Positions 15,665 to 58,054 of a stretch of DNA of 64,000 nucleotides are shown piece by piece (the first letter of the stretch is position 1; each line of letters starts with the position of its first letter). The notes beneath the pieces were generated by a model. The model saw only the letters and a program-made list of their open reading frames with translations, ran no database searches and had not been told where the DNA came from. The DNA lies in assembly GCF_023055435.1 (NCBI RefSeq), contig NW_025963791.1, positions 7,564,001-7,628,000 on the forward strand, read 5' to 3'. Position numbers and translations under genes: made by a program. This DNA is from Haliotis rufescens. Taxonomy: Eukaryota.

Positions 15665-18600
15665 TTAACATTTGTTTCTTCTGAACAGTTTTGTAAAACG
15701 ACCAAAGAAAGATTTTGACTTTTGTACATTTTGTTTCTGATTACAAGTTTCTATTAAATTAGTTGTGCTTGATGACATATGTTTCTTTGATGACAGACTA
15801 CTTTGAGAGAGTTCATGATGTCTACTTTGAGAGAGTTCATGATGTCTTGTTGACCCTTTGTCTTGTTCACGAGGCATGTCATTCTTTGATTGAACAATGT
15901 GGTCAAAACACGTGGTCTGTGTAGCCCCTGACCTCTGGACAAGCCCTACACCCTCTCCCTCTCCTGAATGTACACGCAGTCTTTCAACTCTCAACATGTC
16001 CACCTCCTTCACCAAGCGATCCACCTGCTCCCTGAGGGAGACTTTCTCCCCCGAGAGTTGTCTGGCTTGTCTCTGAAGATGTTGGTTCTTCAGTTTCAGA
16101 CATTGGGAACGGAGTCGAGCATCTCGTAGGTCAGCCCGGAGAATGTCCACATCAACCAGGACAGCCGTCAGCTGCACGTGAAGGTCGAGCTCTTTGCCAA
16201 GTTGTTTGTCCTTTTTACTACAGTCCCATTGGAATGGTGGCTCGGGACGAATAGGTCTTGGTTTTATTGTGACGTGTTTGGGAACCAAATTGTGGAACTC
16301 TGAAAACGCAATAATCGAATTTAGTACATAATCAATCAATCCAATTAACCGGGGGTTACAACAAGCACATTTGGAAATAGGGTCCTTTTGGATCAATCCC
16401 TTGAAATAGGTCAAATTACAAGTTTCTAGTATGCAGTCACAGGTAATACCACAAGGATCTAAACAATGTATTTGTAACGTTCTGCGCCCACTTCGGCCAG
16501 GTTCAATGTCTGCGCTCGGATTTTTATTTATTTTGTTTTTTACTCTTTGTCCCATTTCCAAACTTGGCCTTTCCCTTGTATTCAGATTACTGCCCATGGT
16601 CTGCTCTTTCCGCAGATACCATACTGTTAGCGGTTTTTGATATTGGTCTTGGGGTAAAAAGGCCTACTGATCACTGAAAATCACCGAATATTTTGATTTT
16701 TGCACACCTTCTAATGGCTATAAAGTCATTATGTTGGTGATTATTCATTTATTTTACTGATACTGTCGAATCCACATTTCCAAGAGCTTTCAATATATCT
16801 TAAACAGATTGTAAGTTTTCCAAAAAGGGTAACATGACTAGCCCCTAAGCATTATGGTCGGAAACGTTTGGACCCGGCGTGGACATGCAGATGATATACA
16901 TCTACCGTATAAAATGAAGAGAATGGTAGACATAAAGTGGTTTATTCGGAAAACGTTTTCAACTGTAAGAATTAAAGTTGGAGAGTCGAATGCTGTTATG
17001 ATATATAACGGCACATACCTGACGGTTCTGTACGTGAAAAACACTCCGCCACCTCGGAATCAAACCCCTCACACCCGGACACGGTCAGATGCCTGGCGAC
17101 TGGTTTTGGTTTTATTGTGACGTATTTGGGAACCGAATCATGAAACTCTGAAATAGCAATAACCGGATTAAGTATAGAATCAGTCCAACTGGCAAGACTA
17201 AATCAAATATCACATATGGGTGAAAATCTCAACACCGTAACAATTTCCCACTTGACCTGTACATCAGTAGTTTGTTTGCAGAAATGTATTTTAAAATATT
17301 TGATTTCCTTTTCAAGACTATTCACAAGTAGATTACCTTTCTTCAAATGTAAAATGCTAAAAAAATGTACTTTCAAGTTAATATTTCTTTGTTTATAAGC
17401 AAATATTTTCTGGATTTACTAAAAACATGGCTGTCCCTCAGCTGGACCAGAATAAAAAATAATACCTAATCTATATCTTAATATTCTAAAAATGTAACAA
17501 ATTTTGTTTTTCACACTCTCAAATGACCATTAATTACATGTATCCTATCATTATTATCTAAAACCTAATTGAAAAAAAAATAAATAAGAAAAAAAAGATG
17601 TCCCTCAAAAGGCACTCAACTCCGTTACAACGTACCAATACTAAAAAAATAACTGTGCTATGGGAGATAACTCTCATACGCTTCCTCTTTTGGCAACATG
17701 TGTATGAAGTTCATCTGCTGGTGATAGATAGATGCCACATTTATGTACAATGTTCAAGCCAATGACATCAAGATATGTCTGTTAAGTACAGTATGTTTTC
17801 TGAGCCTCAACTCTGTTACACTGTCTATAGATCTATATCTCATTCTAATTTCCTTCACTTTTCCAAGAGAAATTTGTTAGCAAGACCATGTTAGCAGTGA
17901 GTATTTTAATTTCCATAAAAAGCAAAGCATGCTGGGATATGAGCCATTTATAGTAAGGTTTCTCAACTCCGTTACACTCAACTCTGTAATGCTGTACAGC
18001 GTAACGGAGAGGAAAAATTTGTGCATCTGCACAATTTCGATAGTTATTGTCAGTACATAGCTTTGTTCTTCACGAATATTTTATTTTATTTTAACCCTAT
18101 ACCTGACAAATAATTTTCCCAGTCTGGAGTAAGAACTTTTTTTTTAAATAGTCACTCAGACTGCTCTGATGTTTTGGATGAACAAGATGTTAGGACCTGT
18201 GCAAAATGTGGATTTGATTCTATTGATAGCGCTCTTTCCGACAGTGGACTAATTATTGAAGACAGAACTGTTGTCTTTTACATTGATGGGAGTGCCTGGC
18301 TATTGTGTTTTGGCTGCAGAAAGCAATTTCATTATGCATGTATAAACAACATATTTTCTGACAGTGTTGATGATATGATTGATCTGAAATTTGATCTTGA
18401 AGTTTTATAATATATTATAGTGATCTAAAATGGCATTTTAAGCAACTTTGTGCTTATTTATTTCAACGTCTATACAAAGGGTTGAACATTAGTAATTTAG
18501 TAGACCCACTTTTGTATGCCATTACTGCAGTAACTGGCTCATAAACCATGAGTACCAAAGTCATGACAAGTAACACAACACAGTGCATATATTTTCACAT

Positions 18601-19459
18601 TTCATCTCAAAAGGGATGAAAAGGTTGTTATTTTATGCTAGAGAGCAATAACAAAATATATGAGTTACAACTCCGTTACAACAAACTCAACTCTGTTACG
18701 TCAGGATTTTTTTAATAGATGACTTCTTTTGACAACTGACGAAAAACTTTGTTGTTTTTATGAGTTTTAACTTAAGATTAGGACTAATGATAATATATGT
18801 TGTGACAAAAGATGAAAAATACTATATTTTGGATACCGTCTTTCATGTAAATGACTTTGTTGTCTAGGCAAACTTTTGAAATATGGAGCGAGCACTTACA
18901 AATGTCCAATCATACATTTTATTTAGCCAGTTTGCATTTGTTTAACACTGAATTGTATTCACACTTAATGTTAATTGCTGAATACGATTTTATATTTCAA
19001 AGCAACCTAGCGCTATTAAAATTACTTTCCATTTTGTGATCCGTAACGGAGTTGAATGTCCTAGCAGATTAGGCTAATTCATTAATTATTTTCTAATTAA
19101 TTAAACACATCACTGCACTGCATTGAAATAGAAAGTACTTCTCAAGTATCATATTCTCTAATATCAAGAGAAAAATTATATTAGGGACACTTTTATTTTT
19201 GCAAGTTGATATCAGAAAATTTGTCGGTTTTGAGATTTTTACCCATATACATCTATGGCATAAAATTAAGGAAGTGGTGCAAATGAAGTGGTTGATTCTG
19301 AAACCCTTTTCAATTTAGAGAATTGAAGTTGTAGAGTTGAACTCTGTTTTTACATATAAATGCATACACACCTGTCGGTTCTGTACGTGAAAAACACTCC
19401 GCCACCTCGGAATCAAAGCCCTCACACTCGGACACGGTCAGACGTCTGGTGACTGGCAT
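15665..19459 (-). CDS. Orphan repeat/coiled-coil protein, copy 1. Exons 19459-19372, 17147-17019, 16299-15665 (283 aa)
   Basis: ATG CCA GTC start, GT-AG introns that are both phase 1, open frame; in-frame 24-bp duplication (RHHELSQS twice). Confidence 0.78.
17218..19244. mobile_element. Non-autonomous TIR DNA transposon, Sola-like (tentative), in intron 1 of copy 1
   Basis: About 30-bp imperfect TIRs GGGTGAAAATCTCAACACCG / CGGTTTTGAGATTTTTACCC; TSD ATAT (or TA); absent from units 2-4 (empty site CACATATACATC); internal CAACTCCGTTACA repeats. Confidence 0.85.
18174..18410 (+). pseudogene. PHD-finger-like fragment carried by the transposon
   Basis: CAKC...WLLCFGCRKQFHYAC fits the C-x2-C...W-x2-C-x2-C-x4-H-x2-C pattern; the last Cys pair is missing. 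Confidence 0.45.
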
Positions 19460-20849
19460 AATGCTTCGATAATCTCGATAAATGAAGAGAGTACTGCAGT
19501 GCTGCTGTAGCTAGCTGAGACAATGTCAGACAATGGCGTGACATCACAATATCGCCTAATGACGTCATAGTGACGTCTAGTCGGTAGATGTCGCTGTCCG
19601 TTCGGCGAAAATACCTTCGGAAGAAATCGGCATATTTCGTCTTGAGTGTGTTCCGATTGGTACACAGCCGAAACATACTATGATCATGAGATGCGCCTTG
19701 TTCTTTGGTATTATTTCATGGGCTTATATCAAATGATTATGAACAATATCAATCCAAAAACTGTAAAAGGAATTGGCGATATTTTCATGTGTTTTTTCAA
19801 ATGTATTTCTTTTCTGAAAGAGATTTTTTTTTTATTGTGATCTATCAGTGGCATTTCACAATTGTATTTATATCTGTAAACATGTGCTTGCGCAGGAAAG
19901 CAACAGGGAAATAGTTTGGTCAAGGCCAGATGAAAGTGTTGAAAAAACCCATTAAGGGTTGAAAAGTCCCTTCTGTGTTATCGGTAAAATGAGTGATTCA
20001 GTTGGGTTTTAAGGACGCATTTAACATAATTTCGGTTAAATAGCGGCGTGTCAGATGAATTATGTTTTTTTCTTAAACGTTTGTGAGGATGAAAACTCAG
20101 CATCGCTTCAAACTTCTTAGTTCGATACACGTCACTGAGTTACTCAAATATGGAAACTTCTACATCCTTCCGTATCTCTATTTTAGGTCTCAATTTGAAA
20201 ACTGAAAATGACATGGACCAGTTATCCTTTTAAATTTCCCACCCTTTTTCTTGTTATTTTACGCCATGCACTGTTCATGATTATAGCAGATGGACCAGTT
20301 GTCTCGCGCGAGGCAAGACGCTGTGCAGACATGCGTCCTTCTTAGACGTACCATATACAGAATTCTCTGGTCGTCGGTTCTTGATTTGTAAGCACCATAC
20401 AATAGGCTGGAGAATTCTCACTTAGCTTATGATAACATATGAATATGTTCCCGTGTTTGTTCAGGAGAACGCTTGACTTGCCTTTGTGTGTGTTTGTGAC
20501 CGGTGAGGCAGGATATACTCCCCTTTTCGCCAACATCTGGTGTCATCACTATTTATTAGTGATTCAGAAATACATCTTTATAATACATTCGGAATCGTAC
20601 AATGGACGCTGCTTTTAGCAGAACTTTCTTATGATTATGGATAGAGTTTTGTCTATTATTTATGGAAGATATATATATATGTATATATGTTTTGTGTAGC
20701 CATCAATTCAACTAGCACCAAGGCCAGTACTAAGGGTATGCCCCCAGCCGATCACACAGGTCATCAAAGGGTGTTGAATGAATCTAAAATATGTTGTATT
20801 CTTGTCCTGAAAAGATTAGTTTCAATTGAGTAGCCTCGTGGTTAAAGCT

Positions 20850-24247: not shown

Positions 24248-25987
24248 TTAACATTTGTTTCTTCTGAACAGTTTTGTAAAACGACCAAAGAAAGATTTTG
24301 ACTTTTGTACATTTTGTTTCTGATTACAAGTTTCTATTAAATTAGTTGTGCTTGATGACATATGTTTCTTTGATGACAGACTACTTTGAGAGAGTTCATG
24401 ATGTCTTGTTGACCTATTGCCTTGTTCACGAGGCATGTCATTCTTTGATTGAACAATGTGGTCAAAACACGTGGTCTGTGTAGCCCCTGACCTCTGGACA
24501 AGCCCAACACCCTCTCCCTCTCCTGAATGTACACGCAGTCTTTCAACTCTCAACATGTCCCTCTCCTTCACCAAGCGATCCACCTGCTCCCCAAGGGAGA
24601 CTTTCTCCCCCGAGAGTTGTCTGACTTGTCTCTGAAGATGTTGGTTCTTCAGTTTCAGACATTGGGAACGGAGTCGAGCATCTCGTAGGTCAGCCCGGAG
24701 AATGTCCACATCAACCAGGACAGCCGTCAGCTGCACGTGAAGGTCGAGCTCTTTGCCAAGTTGTTTGTCCTTTTTACTACAGTCCCATTGGAATGGTGGC
24801 TCGGGACGAATAGGTCTTGGTTTTATTGTGACGTGTTTGGGAACCAAATTGTGGAACTCTGAAAACGCAATAATCGAATTTAGTATATAATCAATCAATC
24901 CAATTAACCGGGGGTTACAACAAGCACATTTGGAAATAGGGTCCTTTTGGATCAATCCCTTGAAATAGGTCAAATTACAAGTTTCTAGTATGCAGTCACA
25001 GGTAATACCACAAGGATCTAAACAATGTATTTGGAACGTTCTGCGCCCACTTCGGCCAGGTTCAATGTCTGCGCTCGGATTTTTATTTATTTTGTTTTTT
25101 ACTCTTTGTCCCATTTCCAAACTTGGCCTTTCCCTTGTATTCAGATTACTGCCCATGGTCTGCTCTTTCCGCAGATACCATACTGTTAGCGGTTTTGTAT
25201 ATTGGTCTAGGGGTATAAAGGCCTACTGATCACTAAAAATCACCGAATATTTAGATTTTTCCAAGCCTTCTAATGGCTATAAAGTCATTATTTTGGTGGT
25301 TGTTTATTTATTTCACTGATACTGTCGAATCCACATTTCCAAGAGCTTTCAATATATCTTTAACAGATTGTATGGTTGCCAAAAAGGGTAACATGAGCAG
25401 CCCCTAAGCATTATGGTCGGAAACGTTTGGACCCGGCTTGGACATGCAGATGATATATATCTACCGTATAAAATGAAGGAAATGGTAGACATAAAGTGGT
25501 TTATTCGGAAAACTTTTTCAATTGAAAAAATTGAAGTTGGAGAGTCGAATGCTGTTATGATATATAACGGCACATACCTGACGGTTCTGTACGTGAAAAA
25601 CACTCCGCCACCTCGGAATCAAACCCCTCACACCCGGACACGGTCAGATGCCTGGCGACTGGTTTTGGTTTTATTGTGACGTATTTGGGAACCGAATCAT
25701 GAAACTCTGAAATAGCAATAACCGGATTAAGTATAGAATCAGTCCAACTGGCAAGACTAAATCAAATATCACATATACATCTATGGCATAAAATTAAGGA
25801 AGTGGTGCAAATGAAGTGGTTGATTCTGAAACCCTTTTCAATTTAGAGAATTGAAGTTGTAGAGTTGAACTCTGTTTTTACATATAAATGCATACACACC
25901 TGTCGGTTCTGTACGTGAAAAACACTCCGCCACCTCGGAATCAAAGCCCTCACACTCGGACACGGTCAGACGTCTGGTGACTGGCAT
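24248..25987 (-). CDS. Orphan repeat/coiled-coil protein, copy 2. Exons 25987-25900, 25706-25578, 24858-24248 (275 aa)
   Basis: Same splice sites and phases as copy 1; open frame. Confidence 0.78.
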
Positions 25988-28900
25988 AATGCTTCGATAA
26001 TCTCGATAAATGAAGAGAGTACTGCAGTGCTGCTGTAGCTAGCTGAGACAATGTCAGACAATGGCGTGACATCACAATATCGCCTAATGACGTCATAGTG
26101 ACGTCTAGTCGGTAGATGTCGCTGTCCGTTCGGCGAAAATACCTTCGGAAGAAATCGGCATATTTCGTCTTGAGTGTGTTCCGATTGGTACACAGCCGAA
26201 ACATACTATGATCATGAGATGCGCCTTGTTCTTTGGTATTATTTCATGGGCTTATATCAAATGATTATGAACAATATCAATCCAAAAACTGTAAAAGGAA
26301 TTGGCGATATTTTCATGTGTTTTTTCAAATGTATTTCTTTTCTGAAAGAGATTTTTTTTTTATTGTGATCTATCAGTGGCATTTCACAATTGTATTTATA
26401 TCTGTAAACATGTGCTTGCGCAGGAAAGCAACAGGGAAATAGTTTGGTCAAGGCCAGATGAAAGTGTTGAAAAAACCCATTAAGGGTTGAAAAGTCCCTT
26501 CTGTGTTATCGGTAAAATGAGTGATTCAGTTGGGTTTTAAGGACGCATTTAACATAATTTCGGTTAAATAGCGGCGTGTCAGATGAATTATGTTTTTTTC
26601 TTAAACGTTTGTGAGGATGAAAACTCAGCATCGCTTCAAACTTCTTAGTTCGATACACGTCACTGAGTTACTCAAATATGGAAACTTCTACATCCTTCCG
26701 TATCTCTATTTTAGGTCTCAATTTGAAAACTGAAAATGACATGGACCAGTTATCCTTTTAAATTTCCCACCCTTTTTCTTGTTATTTTACGCCATGCACT
26801 GTTCATGATTATAGCAGATGGACCAGTTGTCTCGCGCGAGGCAAGACGCTGTGCAGACATGCGTCCTTCTTAGACGTACCATATACAGAATTCTCTGGTC
26901 GTCGGTTCTTGATTTGTAAGCACCATACAATAGGCTGGAGAATTCTCACTTAGCTTATGATAACATATGAATATGTTCCCGTGTTTGTTCAGGAGAACGC
27001 TTGACTTGCCTTTGTGTGTGTTTGTGACCGGTGAGGCAGGATATACTCCCCTTTTCGCCAACATCTGGTGTCATCACTATTTATTAGTGATTCAGAAATA
27101 CATCTTTATAATACATTCGGAATCGTACAATGGACGCTGCTTTTAGCAGAACTTTCTTATGATTATGGATAGAGTTTTGTCTATTATTTATGTCTATTAT
27201 ATAAGATATATATATATGTATATATGTTTTGTGTAGCCATCAATTCAACTAGCACCAAGGCCAGTACTAAGGGTATGCCCCCAGCCGATCACACAGGTCA
27301 TCAAAGGGTGTTGAATGAATCTAAAATATGTTGTATTCTTGTCCTGAAAAGATTAGTTTCAATTGAGTAGCCTCGTGGTTAAAGCTGTATTTGTTTGTTT
27401 GTTTGAGTTGTTGTTTAACACTGCTCTCAGCAATAATCCAGTTATATGACGGCGGTCTGTAAAATATCGAGTCTGGACCAGACAATCCAGTGATTGACAT
27501 CATGAAGATCGATACACGGAATTGTAATACGATGATATGCATCAACCAAGTCAGCGAGCCTGACCACCCGATCCCGTTAGTCGCCTTTTCGGCAAGCATG
27601 GGTTGCTGAAGACCTATTTTAACCAGGATCTTCACGGGTGAGTGGTAAAAGCGTTCTTAATGCCATAATAAATGTACAGTTGTAGGTGATTTAAAAAACA
27701 GAACAAAGAATATAACAGTATAATAAGACCATCCATTACAACACCATGTGTAGCAAAAGTTCAGTATGCAGTTTTCTTCAAACTGAAAGAAAACTGGTCA
27801 ACTTCACATGTCAATGCTGGAGAGATGTCCTGTTCAATTACTACGATTGTGGATGGTGGACATAAGTAGCATAGCTTTTGATATAACCTGGTGTAGAAAA
27901 GAAACGTTACCACCTGAAATTTGGACACGTTGTTTCCGAACCTTGAGCAGTGTTACATGCAAAATGGATGAGAATCAATCGCCTAAACACAACCAAAATA
28001 ATCTGCTGAGTGACACAGTACCCAGATCAATGGAAATTGAGTCTGAAGTGAAGATGCTGCTACAGGTGCAGCATGGCAACCAACAAACATACGGTTATTA
28101 AAGGAACGATGTACTGTTCATGCATACCCTAACCATTGGACAGTGACAAATAGCATGCCAAGATTAACGCTGCACCTGAGAGAACAAGGCGGAGATATGA
28201 TACATCAAGGAGCAATACATGACCAGGGCCCACTTGCAGAAAGCGATCTTAGCTCTACGACTATTGTAAGCCTATGTTAAAGAATAAGATTAGATCGCTT
28301 TGTGTAAGTGGGCCCAGGTCGCAAGGAGCTTTGCTGTAGCCGAATAACAGTCACCAGGCTCATGGCCCGTTTGGCCATCAATATTTTGTTATGTGTTTCT
28401 AATCTCCAACCTTAACCAACAAGAGAGCGGGCGGACCAACTTTGTAAAAAAGTAAACAATTTAAAAAGTGTTTTCAAATAATTGCGTAACATATTTTATG
28501 AAATTTTAAAGTTTAGAACACTTGGTAACAGCTCTTACTTTAATTTACTTCGAACCGTTAAATGTAGCGGCGTAATGGTTTGGGCCAAGTTAAGACAGAC
28601 CTTGTGATTTATGAAGGCAAATATATACTTCTGGACAGCGTTACATTGATCAAGTTCTCCGCCCTGTTGTACTACCGTTCTCATAAGAAAAATCCGGATC
28701 CTGTTTCAGCACGATAACACAAGGCCACATACAACGTCTCGCCTTCATCAGATAAGACTTATCACCCATAGAACACTCGTGGACCTCCTTGACCGTCAAA
28801 TTAGAGCACGGCCAGTTAGCCCTAAAACAGGGATCACAGAGCCCCGAGAAGACTGGCGTCGAATCCGTTAAAAACATGACTTTGCACACGAAATATTCGT

Positions 28901-30784: not shown

Positions 30785-32515
30785 TTAACATTTGTTTCTT
30801 CTGAACAGTTTTGTAAAACGACCAAAGAAAGATTTTGACTTTTGTACATTTTGTTTCTGAATACAAGTTTCTATTAAATTAGTTGTGCTTGATGACATAT
30901 GTTTCTTTGATGACAGACTACTTTGAGAGAGTTCATGATGTCTTGTTGACCTATTGCCTTGTTCACGAGGCATGTCATTCTTTGATTGAACAATGTGGTC
31001 AAAACACGTGGTCTGTGTAGCCCCTGACCTCTGGACAAGCCCAACACCCTCTCCCTCTCCTGAATGTACACGCAGTCTTTCAGCTCTCAACATGTCCCTC
31101 TCCTTCACCAAGCGATCCACCTGCTCCCCAAGGGAGACTTTCTCCCCCGAGAGTTGTCTGACTTGTCTCTGAAGATGTTGGTTCTTCAGTTTCAGACATT
31201 GGGAACGGAGTCGAGCATCTCGTAGGTCAGCCCGGAGAATGTCCACATCAACCAGGACAGCCGTCAGCTGCACGTGAAGGTCGAGCTCTTTGCCAAGTTG
31301 TTTGTCCTTTTTACTACAGTCCCATTGGAATGGTGGCTCGGGACGAATAGGTCTTGGTTTTATTGTGACGTGTTTGGGAACCAAATTGTGGAATTCTGAA
31401 AACGCAATAATCGAATTTAGTATATAATCAATCAATCCAATTAACCGGGGGTTACAACAAGCACATTTGGAAATAGGGTCCTTTTGGATCAATCCCTTGA
31501 AATAGGTCAAATTACAAGTTTCTAGTATGCAGTCACAGGTAATACCACAAGGATCTAAACAATGTATTTGGAACGTTCTGCGCCCACTTCGGCCAGGTTC
31601 AATGTCTGCGCTCGGATTTTTATTTATTTTGTTTTTTACTCTTTGTCCCATTTCCAAACTTGGCCTTTCCCTTGTATTCAGATTACTGCCCATGGTCTGC
31701 TCTTTCCGCAGATACCATACCGTTAGCGGTTTTGTATATTGGTCTAGGGGTATAAAGGCCTACTGATCACTAAAAATCACCGAATATTTAGATTTTTCCA
31801 AGCCTTCTAATGGCTATAAAGTCAATATTTTGGTGGTTGTTTATTTATTTGACTGATACTGTCGAATGCACATTTCCAAGAGCTTTCAATATATCTATAA
31901 GTGATTGTATGGTTGCCAAAAAGGGTAACATGAGCAGCCCCTAAGCATTATGGTCGGAAACGTTTGGACCCGGCTTGGACATGCAGATGATATACATCTA
32001 CCGTATAGAATGAAGGAAATGGTAGACATAAAGTGGTTTATTCGGAAAACTTTTTCAATTGAAAAAATTGAAGTTGGAGAGTCGAATGCTGTTATGATAT
32101 ATAACGGCACATACCTGTCGGTTCTGTACGTGAAAAACACTCTGCCACCTCGGAATCAAACCCCTCACACCTCAGACGCCTAGCGACTGGTCTTGGCTTT
32201 ATTGTGGCGTATTTGGGAACCGAATCATGAAACTCTGAAATAGCAATAACCGGATTTAGTATAGAATCAATCCAACTGGCAAGACTAAATCAAATATCAC
32301 ATATACATCTATGGCATAAAATTAAGGAAGTGGTGCAAATGAAGTGGTTGATTCTGAAACCCTTTTCAATTTAGAGAATTAAAGTTGTAGAGTTGAACTC
32401 TGTTTTTACATATAAATGCATACACACCTGTCGGTTCTGTACGTGAAAAACACTCCGCCACCTCGGAATCAAAGCCCTCACACTCGGACACGGTCAGACG
32501 TCTGGTGACTGGCAT
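30785..32515 (-). CDS. Orphan repeat/coiled-coil protein, copy 3. Exons 32515-32428, 32234-32115, 31395-30785 (272 aa)
   Basis: Exon 2 carries an in-frame 9-bp deletion (120 bp); frame stays open. Confidence 0.78.
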
Positions 32516-40496: not shown

Positions 40497-40785
40497 AGTA
40501 GTTGTGTACATCTGTCTGGAACCGCTCAGGATTACAGAACTGCTCAGGATTACAGAACCGCTCAGGATTTCAGAACCGCTCCTGGCTTCTGATTGGTCGA
40601 GAGGATCACGTGACCTCTGTGACGTCACTTCCGGTCACGTGACCTGCGCATGCGCGCGGGGCATGATGGGACTTGCGCGCGCATCCAAGATGGCGGCACT
40701 TCCGTTTCCGGTCACGTGACCTGCACAGTGCATGATGGGTCCTGCGTGCGCCTCCAGTAGGGCGTCACATCCTTTTCCGGTGGCA
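40497..40785 (+). repeat. Left TIR of the Polinton (truncated internally)
   Basis: Reverse complement of 49756-50008, plus two extra copies of the 18-mer GAACCGCTCAGGATTACA. Confidence 0.95.
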
Positions 40786-41153
40786 ATACGAAAGAAGAAG
40801 AAACCGAAGTGCTGCGATGGTTCACCAAGAAAAGTCATCACCGAAACACATCTGTGCTGTATCTCACTCAGAACTTGTTTGCTCAATCGCCGCAACATCG
40901 CACCATCAGTCTGAATGCTCACTACATGGTCCTCTTTAAAAATCCGAGAGATGCATCGCAGATCGACAGTCTGGCTCGCCAGGTGTTTCCAGGCAAAGTT
41001 CCTTTTCTGAGTGAAGCCTATGAAGACGCTACCCGAGAGCCTTACACTTACCTGTTCTTGGACTTGAAGCCCACCACGTTGCAAGACCATCGCGTACACG
41101 CCGGCCTGTTTTCGAGATCCGAATTACCCCTCGTGTATGTGCCGATCCTATGA
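40786..41153 (+). pseudogene. FtsK/A32-like packaging ATPase, C-terminal half only
   Basis: FTKKSHHRNTSVLYLTQNLF..RTISLNAHYMVLFKNPRDASQI..LARQVFP..AYEDAT..PYTYLFLDL. Walker A and B are missing; the fragment is fused directly to the TIR. Confidence 0.92.
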
Positions 41154-41218
41154 GATGAAGAGATTTTCATAAAAGGAGGTGAAACCTCAGACCTTCCTTC
41201 AGTTGACCTACATCCATC

Positions 41219-42169
41219 ATGGGGCAAAGACGGAAACAGGTTCATCCTACGAAGGGAAAGAACAAAGACAAAGAGATGGTGAATGATGACAGTATGGTCT
41301 CCCCCTCATCGCTACAGGGACTTGTGACCTCTGTATTTCACAAGACTCCTTCACCTCCAGGATCGTCTCCCTCTTCAATGGTACCCGTGAACATACATTG
41401 TCAGCAGCAGCCATCACCACGTCCTTCAACATCATCAGCACCTTCGCCACCCTCGTCACCACATGATCTTCAACGCTTTCAACCTCTGCAACAGCAACAG
41501 CAGCAGCAGCAGAAGTCCACGCCAGGTACGTCTTACTCTTCGATGGTACCCTTGAACAAGCATCGTCAGGAACAACAACGGCCTTCCTCATCAGCACCCT
41601 CACCCCCACTCGATCTTCAACGCTTTAAATGTCTGCAGCAGCAGGAGCCCCCATGAAGTAAGAAAAAAGACAAGAGACCGCCTATTTTTCCGACAAGGGA
41701 TGCAACAACCCTTGCCGTCAAAGGAAGAAATCGTCTTTTGCAGTGGTTTGCGATTGTCATGCGGAACCTGAGAGCAGGACACATCCCATTGAAAGCTCAA
41801 CATAAGACGTGGTTGCAGAGACATAATGATACCCTGACTAAAATTGTCAATCCACGTCTGCCTATGGATGAACGTCTTGACTACCTGATGCAACGCAGTG
41901 GTAGTGGAACACTTGCAGGGGTCTTGACACGCATTCTGTTGCAATGGCAACATTATCTTCAAGCACCACTCCTCAAACAGGGTAACACCAGGCGTCACCG
42001 ACCTACAACAACAACAACGATGACTACTAAGCCAAAAGTAAAGGCTCATGAAAATGTCATGAAAGCATATCAAGCTGATGCTCTCAGACGATTGGTGCAC
42101 ATGCGGACCCAAAGAAAGTCCAAGAAGGCAGATCAACAGTTGCAACTCCCTCCTGCCACTGCCTGGTAA
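41219..42169 (+). pseudogene. Polinton protein: S/P/Q-rich N-terminus plus a helical domain paralogous to the next gene; one premature TGA at 41654
   Basis: ORFs 41219-41656 and 41738-42169 are in the same frame, and the sequence between them is open. Confidence 0.7.
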
Positions 42170-42226
42170 AAGAGAGAAGCTGCAGATCAGGTGACTCATT
42201 CAGGCTTTCACCTCCATGCAAGAAAG

Positions 42227-42557
42227 ATGTCTCAGTGCCTAAGGAAACAGAAACACGCTCTGTGTCATTTGTGTGCTGCCGCTCCAGCGATGCGCAAAGT
42301 CATTCTCAAACATGCTCCTACTGATCTCATCCGTGCCCTTTGTGAATGTGTGGTGAACTTGTATGCAGGTAATATTCCCATGACAACGACGCAACGTCAA
42401 AACTTGCAACGACCCGGTAAAGTCTTGAATACGCTCATGAAAAAAACAAGTACCTCTAAGCAAGAAACGTAAACTTCTTCAACATGGAGGAGGATTATTA
42501 GGAGGACTCATACCTCTTATTGGTTCTGCCCTAGCCTCTTTGTTTGGAGGAAAGTAA
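42227..42557 (+). pseudogene. Small basic Polinton virion protein with a Gly-rich amphipathic tail; frameshift near 42460
   Basis: RKVILKHAPTDLIRALCECVVNLYAGNIPMT, then the shifted frame KKRKLLQHGGGLLGGLIPLIGSALASLFGGK and stop. Confidence 0.8.
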
Positions 42558-42606
42558 TAAATGGTCTGACACCAGGAAGGTTGGGATCAGTGTGTGGTGT
42601 GCCACC

Positions 42607-43538
42607 ATGAAGTACGCACGCAAGATGGTGTTGATGTCTGAAGACACATGGCAAAGTCTACAGGCCACCAAACAACGTCATCGTCATACCCCTCTCTTGG
42701 AAAAGAAACGTCTCCAAAATTTGGAAGAGATGGACGCGTTGATGCAGAGGTCACAGCAGCCTTTCCACATGCGGGAACAACAATACAACCAACTGTTGCA
42801 ACACATGCTAGAGTTGCAGCGCCAACAGCACAACAACAACAACAACAGCAACAACAACACCATCAAACCACTACAACCCAAAGTGACACCACCACTACCA
42901 CCGTCATCACCATCAACAATGGACACCACAGGTAGACCTGCCCCTCCTCAACAAGTGATAGACGAAGTGGTCATGAGTGTTCCTAAAGCCATGTCCAGTA
43001 AAGCCATGAATTTTATGACAAGGATCTCGACTTGAGTTGGACTCCAGAGGGAACCCTGACCATGGAAGGGAAACCTGTCCCTTGCACACACATGGTGGAC
43101 TTGATCAACGATTTAGTGCGCCACCAGAAAACCAAAGAGGGACCTGCAGGTTGGACCATTTTGAGTCACCATTTGGCCAGCAGTCATGTCCCTCATGAAA
43201 TAATTGAAAATCCTCAACGATGGCAATTGATGCAGAAGCAGCAGCAGCAGCAACACCATCCTCATGCCATACCAGAAACACCCATAACCCTGTTCTCCCT
43301 CCCCACGTTCTCCCCGCAAAGTCACAATGAGAGAAGAAGAAGGAGGCGGCAGCTGGATCCACAAGCGGAAGAAGAAGAAGAAGAAGATGAGATGCCACCC
43401 CCACCTCCTTCGTGGCAACTGGATCCACCAGTGGAGGAAGAAAAAGATGTGATGTCAACCCCATGGTTGATGACTCCACCTCCATCTGATACCAAACAGG
43501 ACAGTCATCAACAGGCGAGGTTCATGGATACCCTTTAG
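42607..43538 (+). pseudogene. Conserved Polinton protein of unknown function; frameshift near 43030
   Basis: Kozak GCCACCATG; MKYARKMVL...QQYNQLLQ...SWTPEGTLTMEGKPVPCTHMVDLINDLVR...PAGW...HVPHEIIENPQRW. I am not sure which PW/PZ label applies. Confidence 0.75.
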
Positions 43539-43619
43539 CACCACCTAAGAAAAAAATAAATCTCTCCCCTTCTCTATAAAAAGGCCATTCATGTAGGAAG
43601 TGGCATCAGTCTGAGAGAA

Positions 43620-44874
43620 ATGAAGCGACAGACCAAGACGTGACAGCGCATTCTTCCCTCTGCTGCTGCTGCAGGGAAACAAAACAAAGGATTTCCTACT
43701 TCCCTTTGGACGGCCTGGTTGGAAAAAACCTACTTTCATCCTGAACATCCTGCAAGTTTTGGAGGCTGGCGACCTTTGTGGAAAGCAGAACGCATCCACG
43801 CTCAAGATGCAAGAACCAGTAAAAGCAAGAAGAAAACCAAGCCATCGCAAAGTCAAATCAAGCGTTGGTTGCAAACCAAAAGTACCTACACCTTGCACAC
43901 ACCAGCCAGACGCTCCTTTCCGAGAGACCACTATTCATGTGGGAGGGGTCGATGAACTGTGGCAAGCAGACTTGAGTGACATGATTGCCTTTCAAGACGA
44001 CAACGAAGGATTCAAATATCTGCTGTGCGTGATCGATGTGTTTTCAAAGATGGCATGGGTGCAACCCCTGAAGGCCAAGAGGAGTTCTGCTTTGACCGAA
44101 GGTTTTCAAACCTTGCTGATGCAACAAGCCAAAGATTGACTCCCTGCTCAATTGCAAACAGACAAAGGCAGAGAATTTGTCAACCGTCCTTTCCAGGCTC
44201 TCATGACGAAGCATGGCATTCATTTCTACACCAGTCAAAATCCTGAAACGAAAGCAGCCGTGGTGAAACGGTTTCAAAGGAAAATGTGGCGATACTTTAC
44301 ACAGCATGGGGCCAGACACTATTTGAAAGTCTTACCCCAGTTGATCAAGTCATACAACCGTCGTGTGCATCGGACCATTGGCCAGCGACCTGTGGACGTC
44401 CTCCCAGGAGATCCCCTGTCAGAAATTCGGGTGTTAGACTACATGGAGGAAAAACAACAACAACGGCTTCAGCGCAAAAAGAAAATAACAACACAAAGAC
44501 AAGACCCCAAGACAAGACCCCCCTCTCTTTTACTGCCGGGCACCCGTGTACGTCTGAACAAAACCAAAGGCACCTTTGAGAAAGGTTATCTCCCCAATTG
44601 GACCACTGAACTGTTTACGGTGGACCGGTTGGTAACAGGGAGAACACCTCCTGTGTATCGGATCAAAGATGATCATGGTGAAGTCCTCCAAGGAACTTTT
44701 TACCCTGAAGAAATACAACCCATCTTGAAAACAGACGATGTGTATGCCGTGGATCACGTGCTAAAAAGACGTCAACGACCGAAACAGGGTCAAGAAGAGG
44801 TCTTGGTGAAATGGACTGGCTACCCTGCCAGTTTTAATTCTTGGATCGCTGCAGATCATTTACAGATAAAATAA
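43620..44874 (+). pseudogene. Retroviral-type (rve) integrase with a C-terminal chromodomain, inactivated
   Basis: YFHPEHPASFGG, WQADLSDM..YLLCVIDVFSK, LQTDKGREF, FEKGYLPNWT, VLVKWTGYPASFNSW. Stops at 43641 and 44137, a frameshift near 43925, and the catalytic E replaced by K (KAAVVKRF). Confidence 0.95.
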
Positions 44875-44919
44875 GGAGCATGCTGTCTCTCAGACTCATT
44901 CAGAGGGTGGACACACGTG

Positions 44920-45375
44920 ATGACAGAACCGCCACCACCACCACCACCGTCATCACCTCTGCAGAGAAGCCTCTCAGCATCCGTGGGTACCGATGAACCT
45001 ACCCTTGCTGCTGCACCTCGTCATCACCAGCGCCGACACTCACCTTGGTGTTGTTTTGGCATGACGTTACACCGCAGTGAAGTTGTGTTTTTTGCTCAGA
45101 TCATTGTGATATATGGCGTGATCATCATGAGCATGGTACAGTTGGCCTTGGATCACGGAGAGAAACAGTTGTGGACAGCCCTGCTCTCAAGTTGTTTAGG
45201 ATACATACTTCCACCACCCACCTTGGCCGCCTCACCAGGCATACCCACGACAACCCACCCACCAGAAGACTTCAACTTGATACCTCATCCACCCAGAGTT
45301 TTCTACCTTAGCTCATGTCATCATGGCTGTCACCTTTTTTTCGAAACAAGACTTTTACATGACCCTACCCAGTGA
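44920..45375 (+). CDS. Small two-transmembrane Polinton protein
   Basis: Hydrophobic segments VVFFAQIIVIYGVIIMSMVQL and LWTALLSSCLGYILPPP; has its own TATA-like/Inr pair upstream. Confidence 0.65.
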   Translation: MTEPPPPPPPSSPLQRSLSASVGTDEPTLAAAPRHHQRRHSPWCCFGMTLHRSEVVFFAQIIVIYGVIIMSMVQLALDHGEKQLWTALLSSCLGYILPPPTLAASPGIPTTTHPPEDFNLIPHPPRVFYLSSCHHGCHLFFETRLLHDPTQ

Positions 45376-46343
45376 TGCCTCCATGGACATCTATCCAAAC
45401 AACACCATCAATGCGTATGAAATCAAGTTGCCTTATCCTCTGATTCTGGACCGTCAACAGTGGGAGGTTGGCGTCAGCAAAATTCACTTTCCGATGACAT
45501 GGTACAACGTCGCCCCACCCTTTGACTGGTTTGCGCTGAACCTCAAACTGAAAAAAGACACCCTTGTGTATGAAAGCATGGGGAGCGCTATACCACAGCC
45601 ACAGTATGGTATCGTCCGTTACGAAAGCAAGAAGATTCCAATCGAGAAAGGCGTCTCTTCATCTGAAGATTTGGTGAAAACCCTCAACCGTTTGATTCAG
45701 GAACATATTACGGATGTCTTGAAAGAACAGCCCTCAGACAGAGTCCAAAGTGATGGAAGACGGTTTGTCATTGATGTCAGGTATCCCAAAGATAGTCTTC
45801 GATTTGACATGCTTGAAGATGGAAAGGTGCGATTACAAGCCCCTCAAGAAGTAGCAATCAATCATCCTCTCCTGGGAAATACTGGTGGACCACTCTATTC
45901 CACGGAAGTGATCATGCCAAGTCCACTCTCGAGAATGCTCGCATTTGTTCAACTACCGATCCTCGGTGAGGAGGACTATAAAACCTACACAGAGACGCCC
46001 GTTCCCTTGACTGCCTTGGCCCAGTGGCAAGTGGGGGCTACTCCCATGACAAGTGGCTATGTGGAAATCACAGCTGATACAAAAGCACATCGTCTGTCAG
46101 GATTTGATACTGTGTACATTTACACCAACCTGGTCGAAGATCAAATTGTGGGCAACACAGATGTCAAAGAAGATGATGCAAGACAGTGTGGTGATTAAAA
46201 GCCCTCAGCACATTCACTACCTTGGGCTGCGTCATGGTTCCTTTGACGGTATTAAACTCTATATCATGGACGACACGGGGCAACCCGTGCCATTTCAAAT
46301 GGGGAAAGCCATCGTGACACTTCACTTCAGACGCCGCTACTAA
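45323..46343 (+). pseudogene. Minor capsid protein (penton, PX); frameshift/deletion near 46165
   Basis: FYMTLPSDASMDIYPNNT..WEVGV..IHFPMTW, VYIYTNLVEDQIVG, IMDDTGQPVPF..GKAIVTLHFRR. Confidence 0.9.
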
Positions 46344-46356
46344 CGCAGAAAGCAAC

Positions 46357-46731
46357 ATGTTGGGACACGCATTGGCACACCAGATGAATCGAGGACAGTT
46401 TGGCCAGTGTGGGAGTGGTATCAAAGTATACAAAGGACGTTATCATCAACGTGGCAGTGGTCTTGGAGGTATCTTGAAGATGGCGTTGCCTTTCCTTAAA
46501 TCTGCCGGAACATCAGTGCTCAAGATGGGTAAAAAGATCCTGCCTGGGTTGGTGAGTGATGTGGTTGGAGGCAAACGCAAATGGTCAGAGAGTCTGAAAC
46601 ATCGCGGCACAGCAGCCCTGATGGATGTCTTGGAGGAACGTGAGGAGCCGAGACCCCCTGAAAGCCGTAAAGTCGTCCCAACCACCATCACCCACCAGAA
46701 ACAGCGTAAAAGGAAAAGAAAAACGGTTTAA
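46357..46731 (+). CDS. Basic core/cement-like virion protein with QxGxG motifs
   Basis: QCGSGIKVYKGRYHQRGSGLGGILKMALPFLK and a basic C-terminus KRKRKRK; lies between penton and hexon. Confidence 0.8.
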   Translation: MLGHALAHQMNRGQFGQCGSGIKVYKGRYHQRGSGLGGILKMALPFLKSAGTSVLKMGKKILPGLVSDVVGGKRKWSESLKHRGTAALMDVLEEREEPRPPESRKVVPTTITHQKQRKRKRKTV

Positions 46732-46806
46732 AGGTCAGTCCTCATCAGACTTTCAACCTGACCAGACGTCCTTCAAGGCAGAGAAAAGGGTGAAACATCC
46801 ATCATC

Positions 46807-48136
46807 ATGATGCGCCGAGATGCTTGCGAATGTTCAAAGGCCCAGTTGGATCTCTTTACTGTACCCCCTGTGTCCACCTCTGTGCAAGAGGGTCAGTGGA
46901 TTTGTTATAGTCCCATGGCACCACCCTCTGTAGCAGGACCACTCCAGTTTAACATTTCCAATCCCGTGAACGCTTACATTGATTTGAAACAGTGCTACCT
47001 GAGAGTATGTCTACGTGTGATGAAAGATGATGGCACGGATACCGTTCTAGCGGATTACCCTGTATCGACAGTCAACAATGTGATACATTCCCTGTTTCGC
47101 GAAGTGCGGCTGCAAGTGGGACACAATCAGTTGGAGATCACACCCTCCATGGGCACTTACCCTTACAGAGCCTACTTGGAAACCCTGGAAAGTTATGGTA
47201 CAGGAGCCAAAACATCTCACCTTCGATGTCCTGGATGGTTCACCAACGATGCTAGTAAAATGGACGTCTTCAATCCTGATGCAGATGCGAACACAAGAAA
47301 CACAGGTGTCAGAACGCGACGCGATCTTATCATATCCAGCCAAAGAAGTGGAACTGACAGGCCGTCTACACTGTGACCTGTTTCTTCAAGACCGTTATCT
47401 GCTGGATGGTGTCCCTATGAAACTGGAATTGTTACGAAGTCCCGATGAGTTCTTCTTCATGTGTGCTGCTGATGGTGTCTACAAACTAGCGCTGACCAAA
47501 GCCGAATTCTATGTCCGTCAGCTCAACATCGATCCTGCTGTCCGAGAAACACACGTGTCCAGTCTGAACGCTGGGGTGACTGCCAAGTATCCCCTTTCAC
47601 GTGTGCATGGGACTGCCCATGACATCCCGAGAGGCGGTAGGGACTTTCACAAGGATCACCTAATCAGTGGCCAATTACCAAAATGCGTGGTCCTGGGACT
47701 GGTGGACAATAGTGCCTACGTAGGAAGCAAAGAGAAGAATCTGTACAACTTCAAACACAATCATGTCACCATGATGAAGCTCAAAGTCAATGGCCAGGAA
47801 GTCCATGGCACGGAAATGAAAAGCGACTTCAGCAACAACAGTGCCCATTTGAAACAAGTCTACATGAATCTGTTCCGAAACACGGGGCAGCTATGGCGAC
47901 CTGAGACCTGCGAACTGACTCCCAAGGCCTTTACTCAAGGTTACACCTTGTGGGTGGTGGATCTCACCCCAGACCTTGGCGCTGATGAAGGCATCAACTA
48001 CCCTCAACACACTGGCAAGTCGGGTTTGGAAATCCAGTTTGGACAAGCTCTCGAGGACCCAGTCACCCTCATCTGCCATGAGGAATACGAAAATGTTCTG
48101 GAAATAGATCGTTTCCGGAATGCGATGATGGTATAA
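46807..48136 (+). pseudogene. Major capsid protein (hexon-like double jelly roll, PY); frameshift near 47335
   Basis: CECSKAQLDLFTVPP, NNVIHSLF, TYPYRAYLETL, GRLHCDLFLQDRYLLDGV, AKYPL, GQLPKCVVLGLVDNSAY, GYTLWVVDLTPD. Confidence 0.93.
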
Positions 48137-48189
48137 AAAGAGCAGCGACAGACGGTCATGCCACACTTTTTCTCCTCCTACAAGGAACC

Positions 48190-48757
48190 ATGGATGAACC
48201 ACTCGGGTTGAGCACCTTGGATTTAGAAGCCCTCGTGGCTGATGACGAACCACTTCATGCCATCTACCGGGGCACCCTGGCCAGAGATGAATTTGCCAGA
48301 CTGGGATGGCCCCTTTTACCCCAAAGCCTACGTGATCAACACAGATTTAAGCGATCAACCTGGCACACACTGGGTGAGCATCTATCGTCCAGCTCCTGGA
48401 TCCGTGGAAATGATGGATAGCTATGGACTGTATTCATTACCCCTGTTTAAAGAGACTTTGAATCGCATGGGTCAGATTCAACAACGATGGAATACACGCC
48501 CCTTACAACATGGATACAGCACGTTGTATGGGGTGTACTGTCTCTACATGCTGACCTATCGCGTGCGTGGGTGGACTTTTAATCAAGTGTTAGATACGTT
48601 GGACTGGAAGGACACCGCCAAGAATGATGCCACGGTATTAGCATGGTTTCATACCAAAGTGTCTACCTCCGTACCTGTGGATGAGATGCCTGCCTTTCGA
48701 CTGAGTGCCCAGACGCGTACCCTACATCAAAAGAACCAACCTTTCTGCCCTTATTGA
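48190..48757 (+). pseudogene. Adenain-like cysteine protease; frameshifted near 48300, catalytic Cys replaced by Tyr
   Basis: YVINTD..PGTHWV (His), DSYG (Asp), PLQ (oxyanion Gln), and STLYGVYC where STxCG is expected. Confidence 0.9.
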
Positions 48758-49604
48758 CAGGACACTTGTTCACTGAACCTACGATCACCTGACTGTCAAC
48801 ATTCCTGATTGAGGAGTGTACATACGTTCACTGCGTTTTAGGAATGTACATACGTTCACTATCAAAGTGGCAAATGTTCTTTTTTTTCAAACTGTACATA
48901 CGTTCACATACGTGTACATACGTTCATGTTCACAAAAGTCACAGGGACGCCCCTAATCCTGTGACTTTTGTTTTGTTGTGTTTGTTCATGTGAGCGGGGC
49001 ATTAAAAAAAGTTGAACCCATAGTAGTGTTGTGTTGTCTGTAAGATGAAGAAAAACAAAACAGGATCGCCATGCACACCCCAGAGAAAACCAAAACCAAA
49101 ACAAAACAAGATCGACATCTGACCGCTTCCTGCATTCCTACACCACGTCCATGTCTGTCGATTCACCTTTAGAAATTCAGGCAACACCTTTAGCACCTTT
49201 AAATTCACTTTCCGACTGTCACTTAGACGAACGACTGTCATAGTGGGCTACAATACACGATCGCCTTGTGGAACGAAACCTTACAACTCAAAGTTTACAA
49301 TCACATGACATGATTTGTGGAATGTTGTTGCAAGATTCTTCGCCGATATGACGTCAACCTAGCAACAAAGTGGCAGAGTCGTCGACTGTGTATGATAACT
49401 TTGATAAGCTCGTCTCAGTGAGCTATCATCTCCACATGCCATCACCCCACACCCACCAAAACAAAACAAAACAAAGAACCCGACTCCCCTCCCTCCTTCT
49501 TCCCTCCCTTCACCACCACCCTCCCTTCACCACCACCACGTCAATGTTTAGAACAACAACAAAAGATTTTTGACGCGCTTCTTTCAATGTCGATCCTGTT
49601 CACC

Positions 49605-50008
49605 TTTTACGTGCGCTTCTCCGGGTTTTCCCCTCCTCCCCGGAAACGGAGGCGACGCCCTCTTGGAGGGGCGCACGCCACCGGACACGGATGCGACGTC
49701 CTCTTGGAGGTGCGAACGCCACCGGACACGGATGCGACGCCATCTTGGATGCGCGTGCCACCGGAAAAGGATGTGACGCCCTCTTGGAGGCGCACGCAGG
49801 ACCCATCATGCACTGTGCAGGTCACGTGACCGGAAACGGAAGTGCCGCCATCTTGGATGCGAACGCAAGTCCCATCATGCCCCGCGCGCATGCGCAGGTC
49901 ACGTGACCGGGAGTGACGTCACAGAGGTCACGTGATCATCTCGACCAATCAGAAGCCAGGAGCGGTTCTGTAATCCTGAGCGGTTCCAGACAGATGTACA
50001 CAACTACT
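49605..50008 (-). repeat. Right TIR plus three further 41-bp GC-rich subterminal repeats
   Basis: 49756-50008 pairs with the left TIR; CCACCGGACACGGATGCGACG..CTCTTGGAGG units continue inward. Confidence 0.92.
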
Positions 50009-55978: not shown

Positions 55979-56257
55979 GGGGGGCACGGGTGGCCCAGTC
56001 GTCTAAGGCGCCGCGATTCGCTGTGCAGAGTTGCGTCCCATGGACACGCCAGAAAACTATGATTGTGGGGTTCGAATCCCGGTTTTTCCCGATTATGTTT
56101 CTAGGTTTGTCAGCACCATACCCGTGCTCGTGGGTTTCACCGAAGTGGTAAACGTCTGAGACCTGCATCACTTCGGGCTTTCCTCCCATATTAAGCTGAT
56201 ACGCCGCGATATAACTGGAATACTGTTAAAAGCAGCGTTAAACACAACTCACTCACA
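55979..56257 (+). mobile_element. tRNA-derived SINE, family C (other copies near 14340, 59153 and 61197-61464)
   Basis: GTGGCCCAGTCGTCTAAGGCG A box, GGTTCGAATCC B box after a long spacer, and an ACTC tail. Confidence 0.85.
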
Positions 56258-56783
56258 CTTTTCAACCCGTAATCATTTCTTTGTAACATTTTTGTGGTGT
56301 TGACCAAACGTCTTCCATGTTGTACAAACACATGTTTACAGATAAATAAACAATTGTGAAATGCTAAAATGACCGATGACAATATCACAAAGCTCACAAT
56401 TCAAATCCCTTCCAGGATTAAAGCCAATTCCTTTTACGGCTTTCGGATAAATATTCTTAATAATGATTTGATATTAGCCAATGATATGATTGTTGAGAAG
56501 GAGGCATCGACATAATACAAAAGAACAAAGAGCGTCTATAACGATCTAAATTTCGGCTGATATGTAGCAATCGGAACACACTCAAAACGAAGTCTTCCGA
56601 AGGTAGGGACGACAGTGAAATCTACAAGCTGCCAACAGAGAGCGCTGACATAATCAGTCATTTTTGTCCAGACTTGTCTGAAATAGCCGAATCTAAACTG
56701 GTTCCACAGTTGGTACGCGACGCAAGCTTAGGACGATTTAGTGTAGGTAGACATATAAGAAATCTAGACAAGACGGGTCGCTA

Positions 56784-56812
56784 TGACGTCATTAGGCAAT
56801 ATTGTGACGTCA
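56784..56812 (+). promoter_or_regulatory. Paired full CRE palindromes upstream of orphan gene copy 5
   Basis: TGACGTCA at 56784 and 56805, about 90-110 bp before the ATG. Both are intact in copies 3 and 4; one is TGACATCA in copies 1 and 2. Confidence 0.55.
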
Positions 56813-56891
56813 CGCCATTGTCTGACATTGTCTCAGCTAGCTACAGCAGCACTGCAGTACACTCTTCATTTATCGAGATTATCGAAGCATT

Positions 56892-58054
56892 ATGCCAGTC
56901 ACCAGACGTCTGACCGTGTCCGAGTGTGAAGGGTTTGATTCCGAGGTAGCGGAGTGTTTTTCACGTACAGAACTGATAGGTATGTGCCGTTATATATAAT
57001 GCCAGAATTTAACTTCAAAGAGGGTTTAAGAATCAACCACTGTATATCCACCACTTCCTTATATTAATTTTATATGAGATATTTGATTTACACTTGCCAA
57101 AAGGGTGGTGATTCTATACTAAATCCGGTTATTGCTATTTCAGAGTTTCATGATTCGGTTCCCAAACACGTCACAGTAAAACCAAGACCAGTGGCAAGGC
57201 GTCTGACCGTGTCCGAGTGTGAGGGCTTTGATTCCGAGGTAGCGGAGTGTTTTTCACGTACAGAACCGACAGGTATGTGTGCCGTTCGTACGTTTAACTT
57301 TCGTATCCCTGCAACTTCATTTGAAACAATAGTTTCTGTATCAACTTATTTTTCTTTCACTTATTTAATACAGTAAATGCATATGTGCTGATGTTAGACC
57401 TACCATTGAGTTAATTATAGACTAAATACCATAATTGTGCTTTCAGAGTTCCATGATTTGGTTCCCAGACACGTCACAATAAAACCAAGACCTATTCGTC
57501 CCGAGCCACCATTCCAATGGGACTGTAGTAAAAACGAAAAACAAGCCAAGGAGCACGAGCTCCACGTTCAGCTGACGGCGGTCCTGGTTGAGGTGGACAT
57601 TCTCCGGGCTGACCTACGAGATGCACGACTCCGTTCCCAATGTCTGAAACTGAAGAACCAACATCTTCAGAGACAAGCCAGACAACTCTCGGAGGAGAAA
57701 GTCTCCCTCGGGGAGCAGGTGGATCGCTTGGTGAAGGAGGTGGACATGTTGAGAGGTGAAAGACTGCGTGTACATTCAGGAGAGGGAGAGGGTGTTGGAC
57801 TTGTTCAGAGGTCAGGGGCTACACAGACCACGTGTTTTGACCACATTATCCAATCAAAGAATGGAATGCCTCGTGAACAAGACAATAGGTCAACAAGACA
57901 TCATGAACTCTCTCAAAGTAGTCTGTCATCAAAGAAACGTATGTCATCAAGCACAACCAATTTAATAGAAAACTGTAATCAGAAACAAAATGTACAAAAG
58001 TCAAAATCTTTTTTTGGTCGTTTTACAAAACTGTTCAGAAGAAACAAATGTTAA
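56892..58054 (+). CDS. Orphan repeat/coiled-coil protein, inverted copy 5. Exons 56892-56979, 57144-57272, 57447-58054 (274 aa)
   Basis: First ATG after an in-frame TAG (56838). Donors AG|GTATGT and acceptors TTTCAG|AG. Exons are conserved with copies 1-4 while introns diverge. Confidence 0.8.

Follow-up and report, generated by a model that had tools for sequence, protein, structure and literature searches.

A Haliotis gene family encoding predicted coiled-coil proteins, with five three-exon copies in one 64-kb stretch of the Haliotis rufescens genome

A 64-kb stretch of the Haliotis rufescens genome (NCBI RefSeq assembly GCF_023055435.1, contig NW_025963791.1, positions 7,564,001 to 7,628,000; hereafter the window, with coordinates counted from its first letter) was found to carry five copies of a three-exon gene belonging to an undescribed, genus-restricted family of familiar kind. 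The copies are supported as genuine spliced protein-coding host genes, with splicing seen at the level of the family, and their frame is under purifying selection. The product is predicted to pair through a long coiled coil and to end in an amphipathic helix. The original prediction, made from the DNA letters, had proposed a hidden, five-copy, functional, lineage-specific and recently amplified orphan gene.

Gene models, splicing and constraint

The copies were rebuilt by anchoring on shared motifs, and the array period was obtained by self-comparison of the window (Table 1). All five have an ATG, GT donors, AG acceptors and zero internal stops. The exons measure 88, 129 (120 in copy 3) and 611 nt (635 in copy 1 and 608 in copy 5), and both introns are in phase 1. 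The coding indels of +24 (copy 1, a tandem duplication in exon 3), -9 (copy 3) and -3 (copy 5) are all multiples of three. The unit formed by exon 1 and the start of exon 3 has been duplicated as the 129-nt exon 2, giving a 43-residue repeat; over their final 76 nt, exons 1 and 2 show just five differences. The original prediction was correct on the start codon, splice sites, frame, coding indels and repeat, and on the copy 5 junctions 56979/57144 and 57272/57447. Intron 1 of copy 1 carries a 2027-bp insertion; intron 2 of copies 1-4 has 56 variable sites and zero indels over 719 bp. A tblastn search across the window returned neither a sixth nor a broken copy.

The genes cannot be called hidden, since RefSeq already annotates these loci and three of the spliced models are letter-identical to RefSeq proteins: copy 2 to XP_046380346.2 (LOC124151757), copy 3 to XP_046380348.2 (LOC124151758 isoform X2) and copy 5 to XP_046380300.2 (LOC124151739). 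The exon 3 frame of copy 5 gave a 100% match to a 274-residue H. rufescens RefSeq protein. The RefSeq models of the two remaining copies differ from those built here. Copy 1 corresponds to LOC125378056, and the two models agree over 230 residues, after which a splice within the 24-nt duplication gives the RefSeq model a different tail. For copy 4 no identical protein was among those fetched; in RefSeq it supplies only the first part of a chimeric model that continues into copy 3. RefSeq labels all these genes 'uncharacterized' and gives neither family nor function. A literature search, which left out subscription papers and part of the supplements, turned up no publication that names any of 12 LOC identifiers or any of six accession stems, and topical searches returned nothing on this family. 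These genes are absent from two top-10 appendix tables of a study of abalone copy-number variation (PMC9936805), the part of that source used here.

Table 1. Positions of the gene copies, promoter sites and inserted sequences in the window (CRE, cAMP response element)
Feature	Position	Strand	Details
Copy 1	15665..19459	(-)	Exon 1 19459-19372, exon 2 17147-17019, exon 3 16299-15665; 283 aa
Copy 2	24248..25987	(-)	Exon 1 25987-25900, exon 2 25706-25578, exon 3 24858-24248; 275 aa
Copy 3	30785..32515	(-)	Exon 1 32515-32428, exon 2 32234-32115 (9-nt deletion), exon 3 31395-30785; 272 aa
Copy 4	37307..39044	(-)	Exon 1 39044-38957, exon 2 38765-38637, exon 3 37917-37307; 275 aa
Copy 5, inverted	56892..58054	(+)	Exon 1 56892-56979, exon 2 57144-57272, exon 3 57447-58054; 274 aa
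Tandem array, head-to-tail	19244..40435		Copies 1-4; period 6528-6529 bp; unit sequence resumes at 50009-51870
Extra ~545 bp in intron 2 of copies 1-4	approx. 24930..25449 (copy 2 positions)		Interspersed repeat inside
Perfect CRE palindrome TGACGTCA	19560..19567		108 nt upstream of copy 1 ATG
Perfect CRE palindrome	26088..26095		108 nt upstream of copy 2 ATG
Two perfect CRE palindromes	32595..32623		Upstream of copy 3; 21 bp apart (-108, -87)
Two perfect CRE palindromes	39124..39152		Upstream of copy 4; 21 bp apart
Two perfect CRE palindromes	56784..56812		Upstream of copy 5; 21 bp apart
Polinton/Maverick-type insertion, 9.5 kb	40497..50008		Fourth unit; AGTAGT termini, 6-bp TATGTT target duplication
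AT-rich insertion, 2027 bp	17218..19244		Copy 1 intron 1; imperfect terminal inverted repeats, GGG...CCC ends

Pooled over the five copies, 43 non-synonymous and 35 synonymous changes were counted on 634 and 191 sites, respectively, corresponding to a per-site ratio (pN/pS) of 0.37 (binomial p 2e-5; approximately 0.001-0.002 in simulations with transition bias). The ratio was 0.27-0.37 in the seven pairs that involve copy 4 or 5, and 0.50-1.06, with few changes, in the three pairs among copies 1-3, whose coding sequences (CDS) are merely 1-2% apart and which are therefore not independent evidence. All three coding indels were multiples of three, against only one of the 11 indels counted in non-coding DNA close to the genes in copies 1-4 (Fisher p 0.011). 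Stop-free frames alone were weaker evidence (p 0.02-0.06). The comparison among copies that had been called for thus places the gene frame under purifying selection.

For splicing, contigs of four of the 24 listed sequencing runs were aligned on copy 2 at 85% likeness. A GT-AG joint at 24858/25900, which connects exon 1 directly with exon 3, was present in runs X1, X4 and X8, which come from three studies under three organism labels, and a joint at 25706/25900 (exon 1 to exon 2) was present in X1 and X8. Both were absent from the large DNA-type run X15. The exon 2 to exon 3 joint, 24858/25578, was not among the 15 of 53 joints listed; as the ends of exons 1 and 2 are nearly identical, joint 24858/25900 may equally be that of exon 2 to exon 3. 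Most of the aligned contigs (140 of 187 in X1) were less than 95% alike and hence come from paralogues or related species, so the joints speak for the family and not for each copy. The RNA-type label of the joint-bearing runs is a guess by the tool. At family level the copies are supported as spliced host genes, and the claim of function stood on purifying selection, spliced joints and RefSeq isoforms.

The open reading frames (ORFs) apparent without splicing are single-exon frames of 302-310 residues, each made of 99 intron 2 codons followed by exon 3. It is highly improbable that these are the real products of copies 1-4. The 99 codons are indeed open in all four copies, which is uncommon (0.00035 in shuffles and 0.008 in neighbouring intergenic DNA), and intron 2 is free of indels, as described above. 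However, the stretch is unconstrained, with a pN/pS of 1.41 (10 versus two changes) against 0.36 for the spliced CDS; contigs from three runs splice across it, copy 5 lacks it, and it occurs in none of the RefSeq proteins fetched. In copy 2 the open codons occupy 24859-25156, with equivalents in copies 1, 3 and 4; they are in frame with exon 3, rich in Cys, and begin with MGS (MGC in copy 4), resembling an acylation signal. The start of the single-exon ORF falls inside the extra ~545 bp of intron 2, a region with loose contig ends at 25160 and 25347 and many rearranged joints in run X15.

Extent and history of the family

Five copies proved to be an undercount. Copy numbers, which rest on protein databases only, gave at least 14 H. 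rufescens loci (nine on the same scaffold, four on another and one on a small scaffold), together with 12 proteins in H. cracherodii, six loci in H. rubra and seven proteins in H. asinina; the gene is therefore not a recent orphan of one species. A sequence search returned 17 matches, all from Haliotis, and a further search added six, again all from Haliotis. A profile searched against 1.84 billion representatives gave seven matches, of which five were Haliotis (E<=1e-10) and two were unnamed and limited to the coil (E 8e-4). No homologue outside Haliotis was found, although the exhaustive library was not searched with the deepest profile and may contain few related snail genera; lineage specificity thus held at the level of the genus. 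A weak search for longer homologues found none.

No named family was recovered by any of the library searches. Pfam gave no family match and Rfam gave 0 matches; the best match among PDB sequences (E 0.014) was to coiled coils only, with no family, and the best Atlas similarities (0.90-0.91) were to unnamed clusters. Among viral contigs, 0 of 17 pattern matches were confirmed as relatives. Consistent with the original prediction, the profile hidden Markov model searches and the transposon comparison produced no Pfam, transposon or viral family.

A tree was built from 41 rows with the first repeat trimmed, after removal of the two matches limited to the coil, one fragment and seven isoforms. 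Two of its groups were deep and single-copy, each with orthologues from three or four species; it also contained one group of one-motif genes and a multicopy subfamily of 27 rows (support 86/77) whose clades were mostly species-specific and in which copies 1-4 formed one clade (99/91). The deep groups were approximately 28% identical to the window genes and joined by long branches. As these subfamilies have orthologues across the genus, the family predates the split of the four Haliotis species. Recent amplification consequently applies to the local array and not to the family, in which even the multicopy subfamily is common to the four species.

Within the array, 18 informative sites upstream pair copies 1 and 2, another 18 within intron 2 pair copies 1 and 4, and copy 3 has seven private changes in its exon 2. 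This conflict can be explained by unequal crossing-over or conversion within the array. Taken together, the comparisons support a family of host genes restricted, as far as searched, to Haliotis, which evolves under purifying selection through birth-and-death and unequal exchange. The recent part is the local array alone, where unequal exchange turns the copies over.

Two further observations were made on family members. Paralogue LOC124114538 carries an independent internal duplication, which comprises the second half of the N-terminal motif described below and the start of the coil. The N-terminal extensions of one H. asinina and one H. rufescens model resemble the 5' leader of the window genes; as they read through leader-like sequence, the leader may be conserved between species.

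Predicted product, promoter and proposed role

The protein begins with a motif of approximately 40 residues, FDxEVxxxF...EF...IKPxPxR..PPFxWD, followed by the coil, a disordered Ser-rich linker and a predicted amphipathic C-terminal helix of the type FFGRFTKLFRR. Likenesses of the motif to LZTS 'SAFKPV' and to SH3-, Siah- and kinesin-light-chain-binding motifs are not put forward as relationships. Identity in the deep alignment was 0.54 for the motif, 0.43 for the tail, 0.41 for the coil and 0.28 for the linker. The motif is, on this alignment, the best-kept part of the protein and is the part doubled by the exon duplication; RefSeq isoforms of 232, 275 and 318 residues correspond to one, two and three motif copies. 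AlphaFold2 predicted a single confident helix at residues 99-183 and low confidence elsewhere, and for a deep paralogue approximately 30% identical it predicted the same plan plus a C-terminal helix. The a and d positions of the coil are 77% hydrophobic, and the heptads are zipper-like with a nearly invariant core Asn, N143. When two copies of residues 45-190 were submitted, the predicted homodimer was an in-register parallel coiled coil of 11 heptads (104-181), with a score of 0.59 against 0.15 for the best control, contact agreement between runs of at least 78% and a partner predicted local distance difference test (pLDDT) score of at least 68. In calibration, 17 of 29 eukaryote homodimers and none of 30 monomers passed the mark used. 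All 21 proteins had a basic tail with a net charge of +2 to +5 and a high hydrophobic moment, and in 20 of them no other 11-residue window was as amphipathic. Hydropathy indicated no signal peptide or transmembrane segment in any of the 21 proteins (maximum 19-residue mean <=1.13).

The palindrome TGACGTCA occurs at -108 from the ATG in all five copies and again at -87 in copies 3-5, and copies 1-4 have a near-site at -118. Eight of its 11 occurrences in the window lie in these five promoters, where 1.1 would be expected in the whole window. No TATA-like box was seen within 300 nt upstream of the ATG in the five copies. Over the 130 nt before the ATG, copy 5 differs from copies 2 and 4 by 4-6%, against a synonymous divergence (dS) of 0.12-0.13 and 13-15% in intron 1. 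This pattern suggests a constrained promoter of the CREB/ATF/CREM type.

From this anatomy we infer, at about even probability, an intracellular, membrane-anchored, dimeric adaptor or tether that is non-enzymatic. Two chains would pair in register through the 11-heptad coil, which would also space them. The basic amphipathic C-terminal helix would bind an anionic membrane surface, the two helices of a dimer providing avidity, and the N-terminal motif would serve as the docking site for another protein. Each chain may receive one to three motifs through duplication and skipping of exons, thereby setting avidity, while tandem gene copies may set dose and the TATA-less promoter with its CRE sites may place the gene under CREB/ATF/CREM-type control. 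Terminal amphipathic helices serve as anchors in yeast Nbp1 and as the membrane-targeting helices of MinD and FtsA. The abalone tail, which is likewise basic, aromatic, amphipathic and terminal, resembles these by analogy of design and not by homology, and the abalone protein has no enzyme domain; an NBP1 cluster, at 0.87-0.88 in both Atlas searches, is a lead only.

Several points weigh against this adaptor reading. The N-terminal motif was modelled without a confident fold (pLDDT 40-54) and matched no library. The dimer mark was reached by only one of seven homodimers without an older solved relative, so the pass may reflect likeness to solved coiled coils. A basic amphipathic tail would be just as compatible with a nuclear segment or with one that binds nucleic acid, microtubules or calmodulin. 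As the five promoters share one ancestor, their CRE count amounts to one event, and gene conversion could account for the promoter conservation.

It is possible, though tentative, that the genes form an amplified family of the male germline, comparable to Speer/Takusan of mouse and expanded for spermatid dosage or by genetic conflict. This would be compatible with the adaptor anatomy, adding a tissue and a cause. Speer/Takusan proteins are coiled coils, and tandem CRE promoters are found in CREM-driven spermatid genes of mammals. The abalone family has the tandem CRE promoter in common with the latter, and small, lineage-restricted, multicopy coiled-coil proteins in common with Speer/Takusan; its clades are species-specific, with fast turnover of copies. 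The Takusan cluster was among the Atlas feature neighbours at 0.88, again a lead only. CRE sites, however, also drive neuronal and stress-inducible genes, and there was no sequence or Pfam match between the families: PF04822 was found in 0 of 11 proteins at E 0.1 and 0 of 14 at E 0.001, and membership was rejected. Speer/Takusan is described as a spermatid family of approximately 215 copies with Takusan derived from Dlg5 (PMC7743899), whereas a parent gene of the abalone family was not found. The tandem array and recurrent species-specific duplication are also features of the Haliotis acrosomal proteins lysin and sp18, which are under positive selection (PMC9022041); these proteins are secreted, unlike the present family with its pN/pS of 0.37 and no signal peptide; nor was there a sequence match to solved lysin or sp18 chains. 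A more elaborate version is unlikely: a conflict gene of a broadcast spawner, in which a CRE-driven spermatid protein would be co-amplified independently in each abalone species, its strength tuned by copy and motif number, with copy-number differences contributing to transmission bias or hybrid incompatibility.

The zipper-like heptads, the core Asn N143 and the CRE promoter would also fit a zipper-only bZIP regulator, induced through CRE, which would pair with CREB/ATF/C/EBP-type factors, use its tail as a nuclear signal and act in negative feedback. We consider this very unlikely. The PDB matches to the Fos and C/EBP-beta zippers were weak (E 0.2-0.8) and did not rise above the noise formed by 35 unrelated coiled coils, and the coil of 11 heptads is twice the length of a bZIP zipper and is predicted to pair with itself along its full length. 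A bZIP transcription factor as such was rejected; bZIP_1 matched one of 11 proteins, in the zipper part only (E 0.025; 15.1 bits versus a cut-off of 27.6). LZTS/Fez1, kazrin and Chibby were Atlas neighbours at 0.88-0.90 (127-137 of 256 shared features) and were likewise set aside, as no Fez1, Kazrin or Chibby match was obtained in Pfam.

Inserted elements, flanking sequence and standing of the family

The fourth unit of the array contains a Polinton/Maverick-type element with long inverted repeats 97-98% alike. Pfam gave weak integrase-core matches, one chromodomain and one weak capsid match; integrase and capsid sequences are each broken up among different reading frames, and no polymerase ORF was seen. 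From their motifs, further ORFs are taken by us to be packaging-ATPase-like and protease-like. As the other units keep the empty site, the element arrived later than the array and is a passenger unrelated to the gene. The AT-rich insertion in copy 1 has a 4-bp ATAT target duplication and an empty site in copy 2, and is, from its structure, a non-coding DNA transposon; such ends resemble those of Sola2-type transposons.

With this element and two smaller insertions in the array, the gene might itself have been a transposon- or Polinton-derived ORF carried by mobile DNA. This is the least probable of the readings considered. The Polinton-type element came after the array and its ORFs show no similarity to the gene. 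The gene is interrupted by spliceosomal introns, and its family includes groups of single-copy orthologues spanning the four species; it contains no transposase, integrase or capsid domain, and has no relatives among the viral contigs.

Elsewhere in the window, short ORFs at 62585-63224 resemble a Penelope-type reverse transcriptase in its C-terminal portion by their motifs, without a supporting Pfam match. A large folliculin (FLCN) exon at 8530-9036 (Pfam Folliculin, E 9e-39) provides a useful synteny marker for the array. Upstream of it is a 490-bp direct duplication (4613-5102 and 7451-7940; 99.4% identity), near which a 143-bp sequence is also duplicated (7303-7445 and 7948-8090). Minisatellites occupy 12520-13119 (19-bp unit, 32 copies) and 13521-13893 (perfect 89-bp unit, 4.2 copies).

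As it stands, the family is an ordinary case of a multicopy gene confined to one genus, a kind common in animal genomes. Scattered 'uncharacterized' RefSeq entries are brought together in a single family whose plan is defined and in which a motif and a promoter element are conserved.

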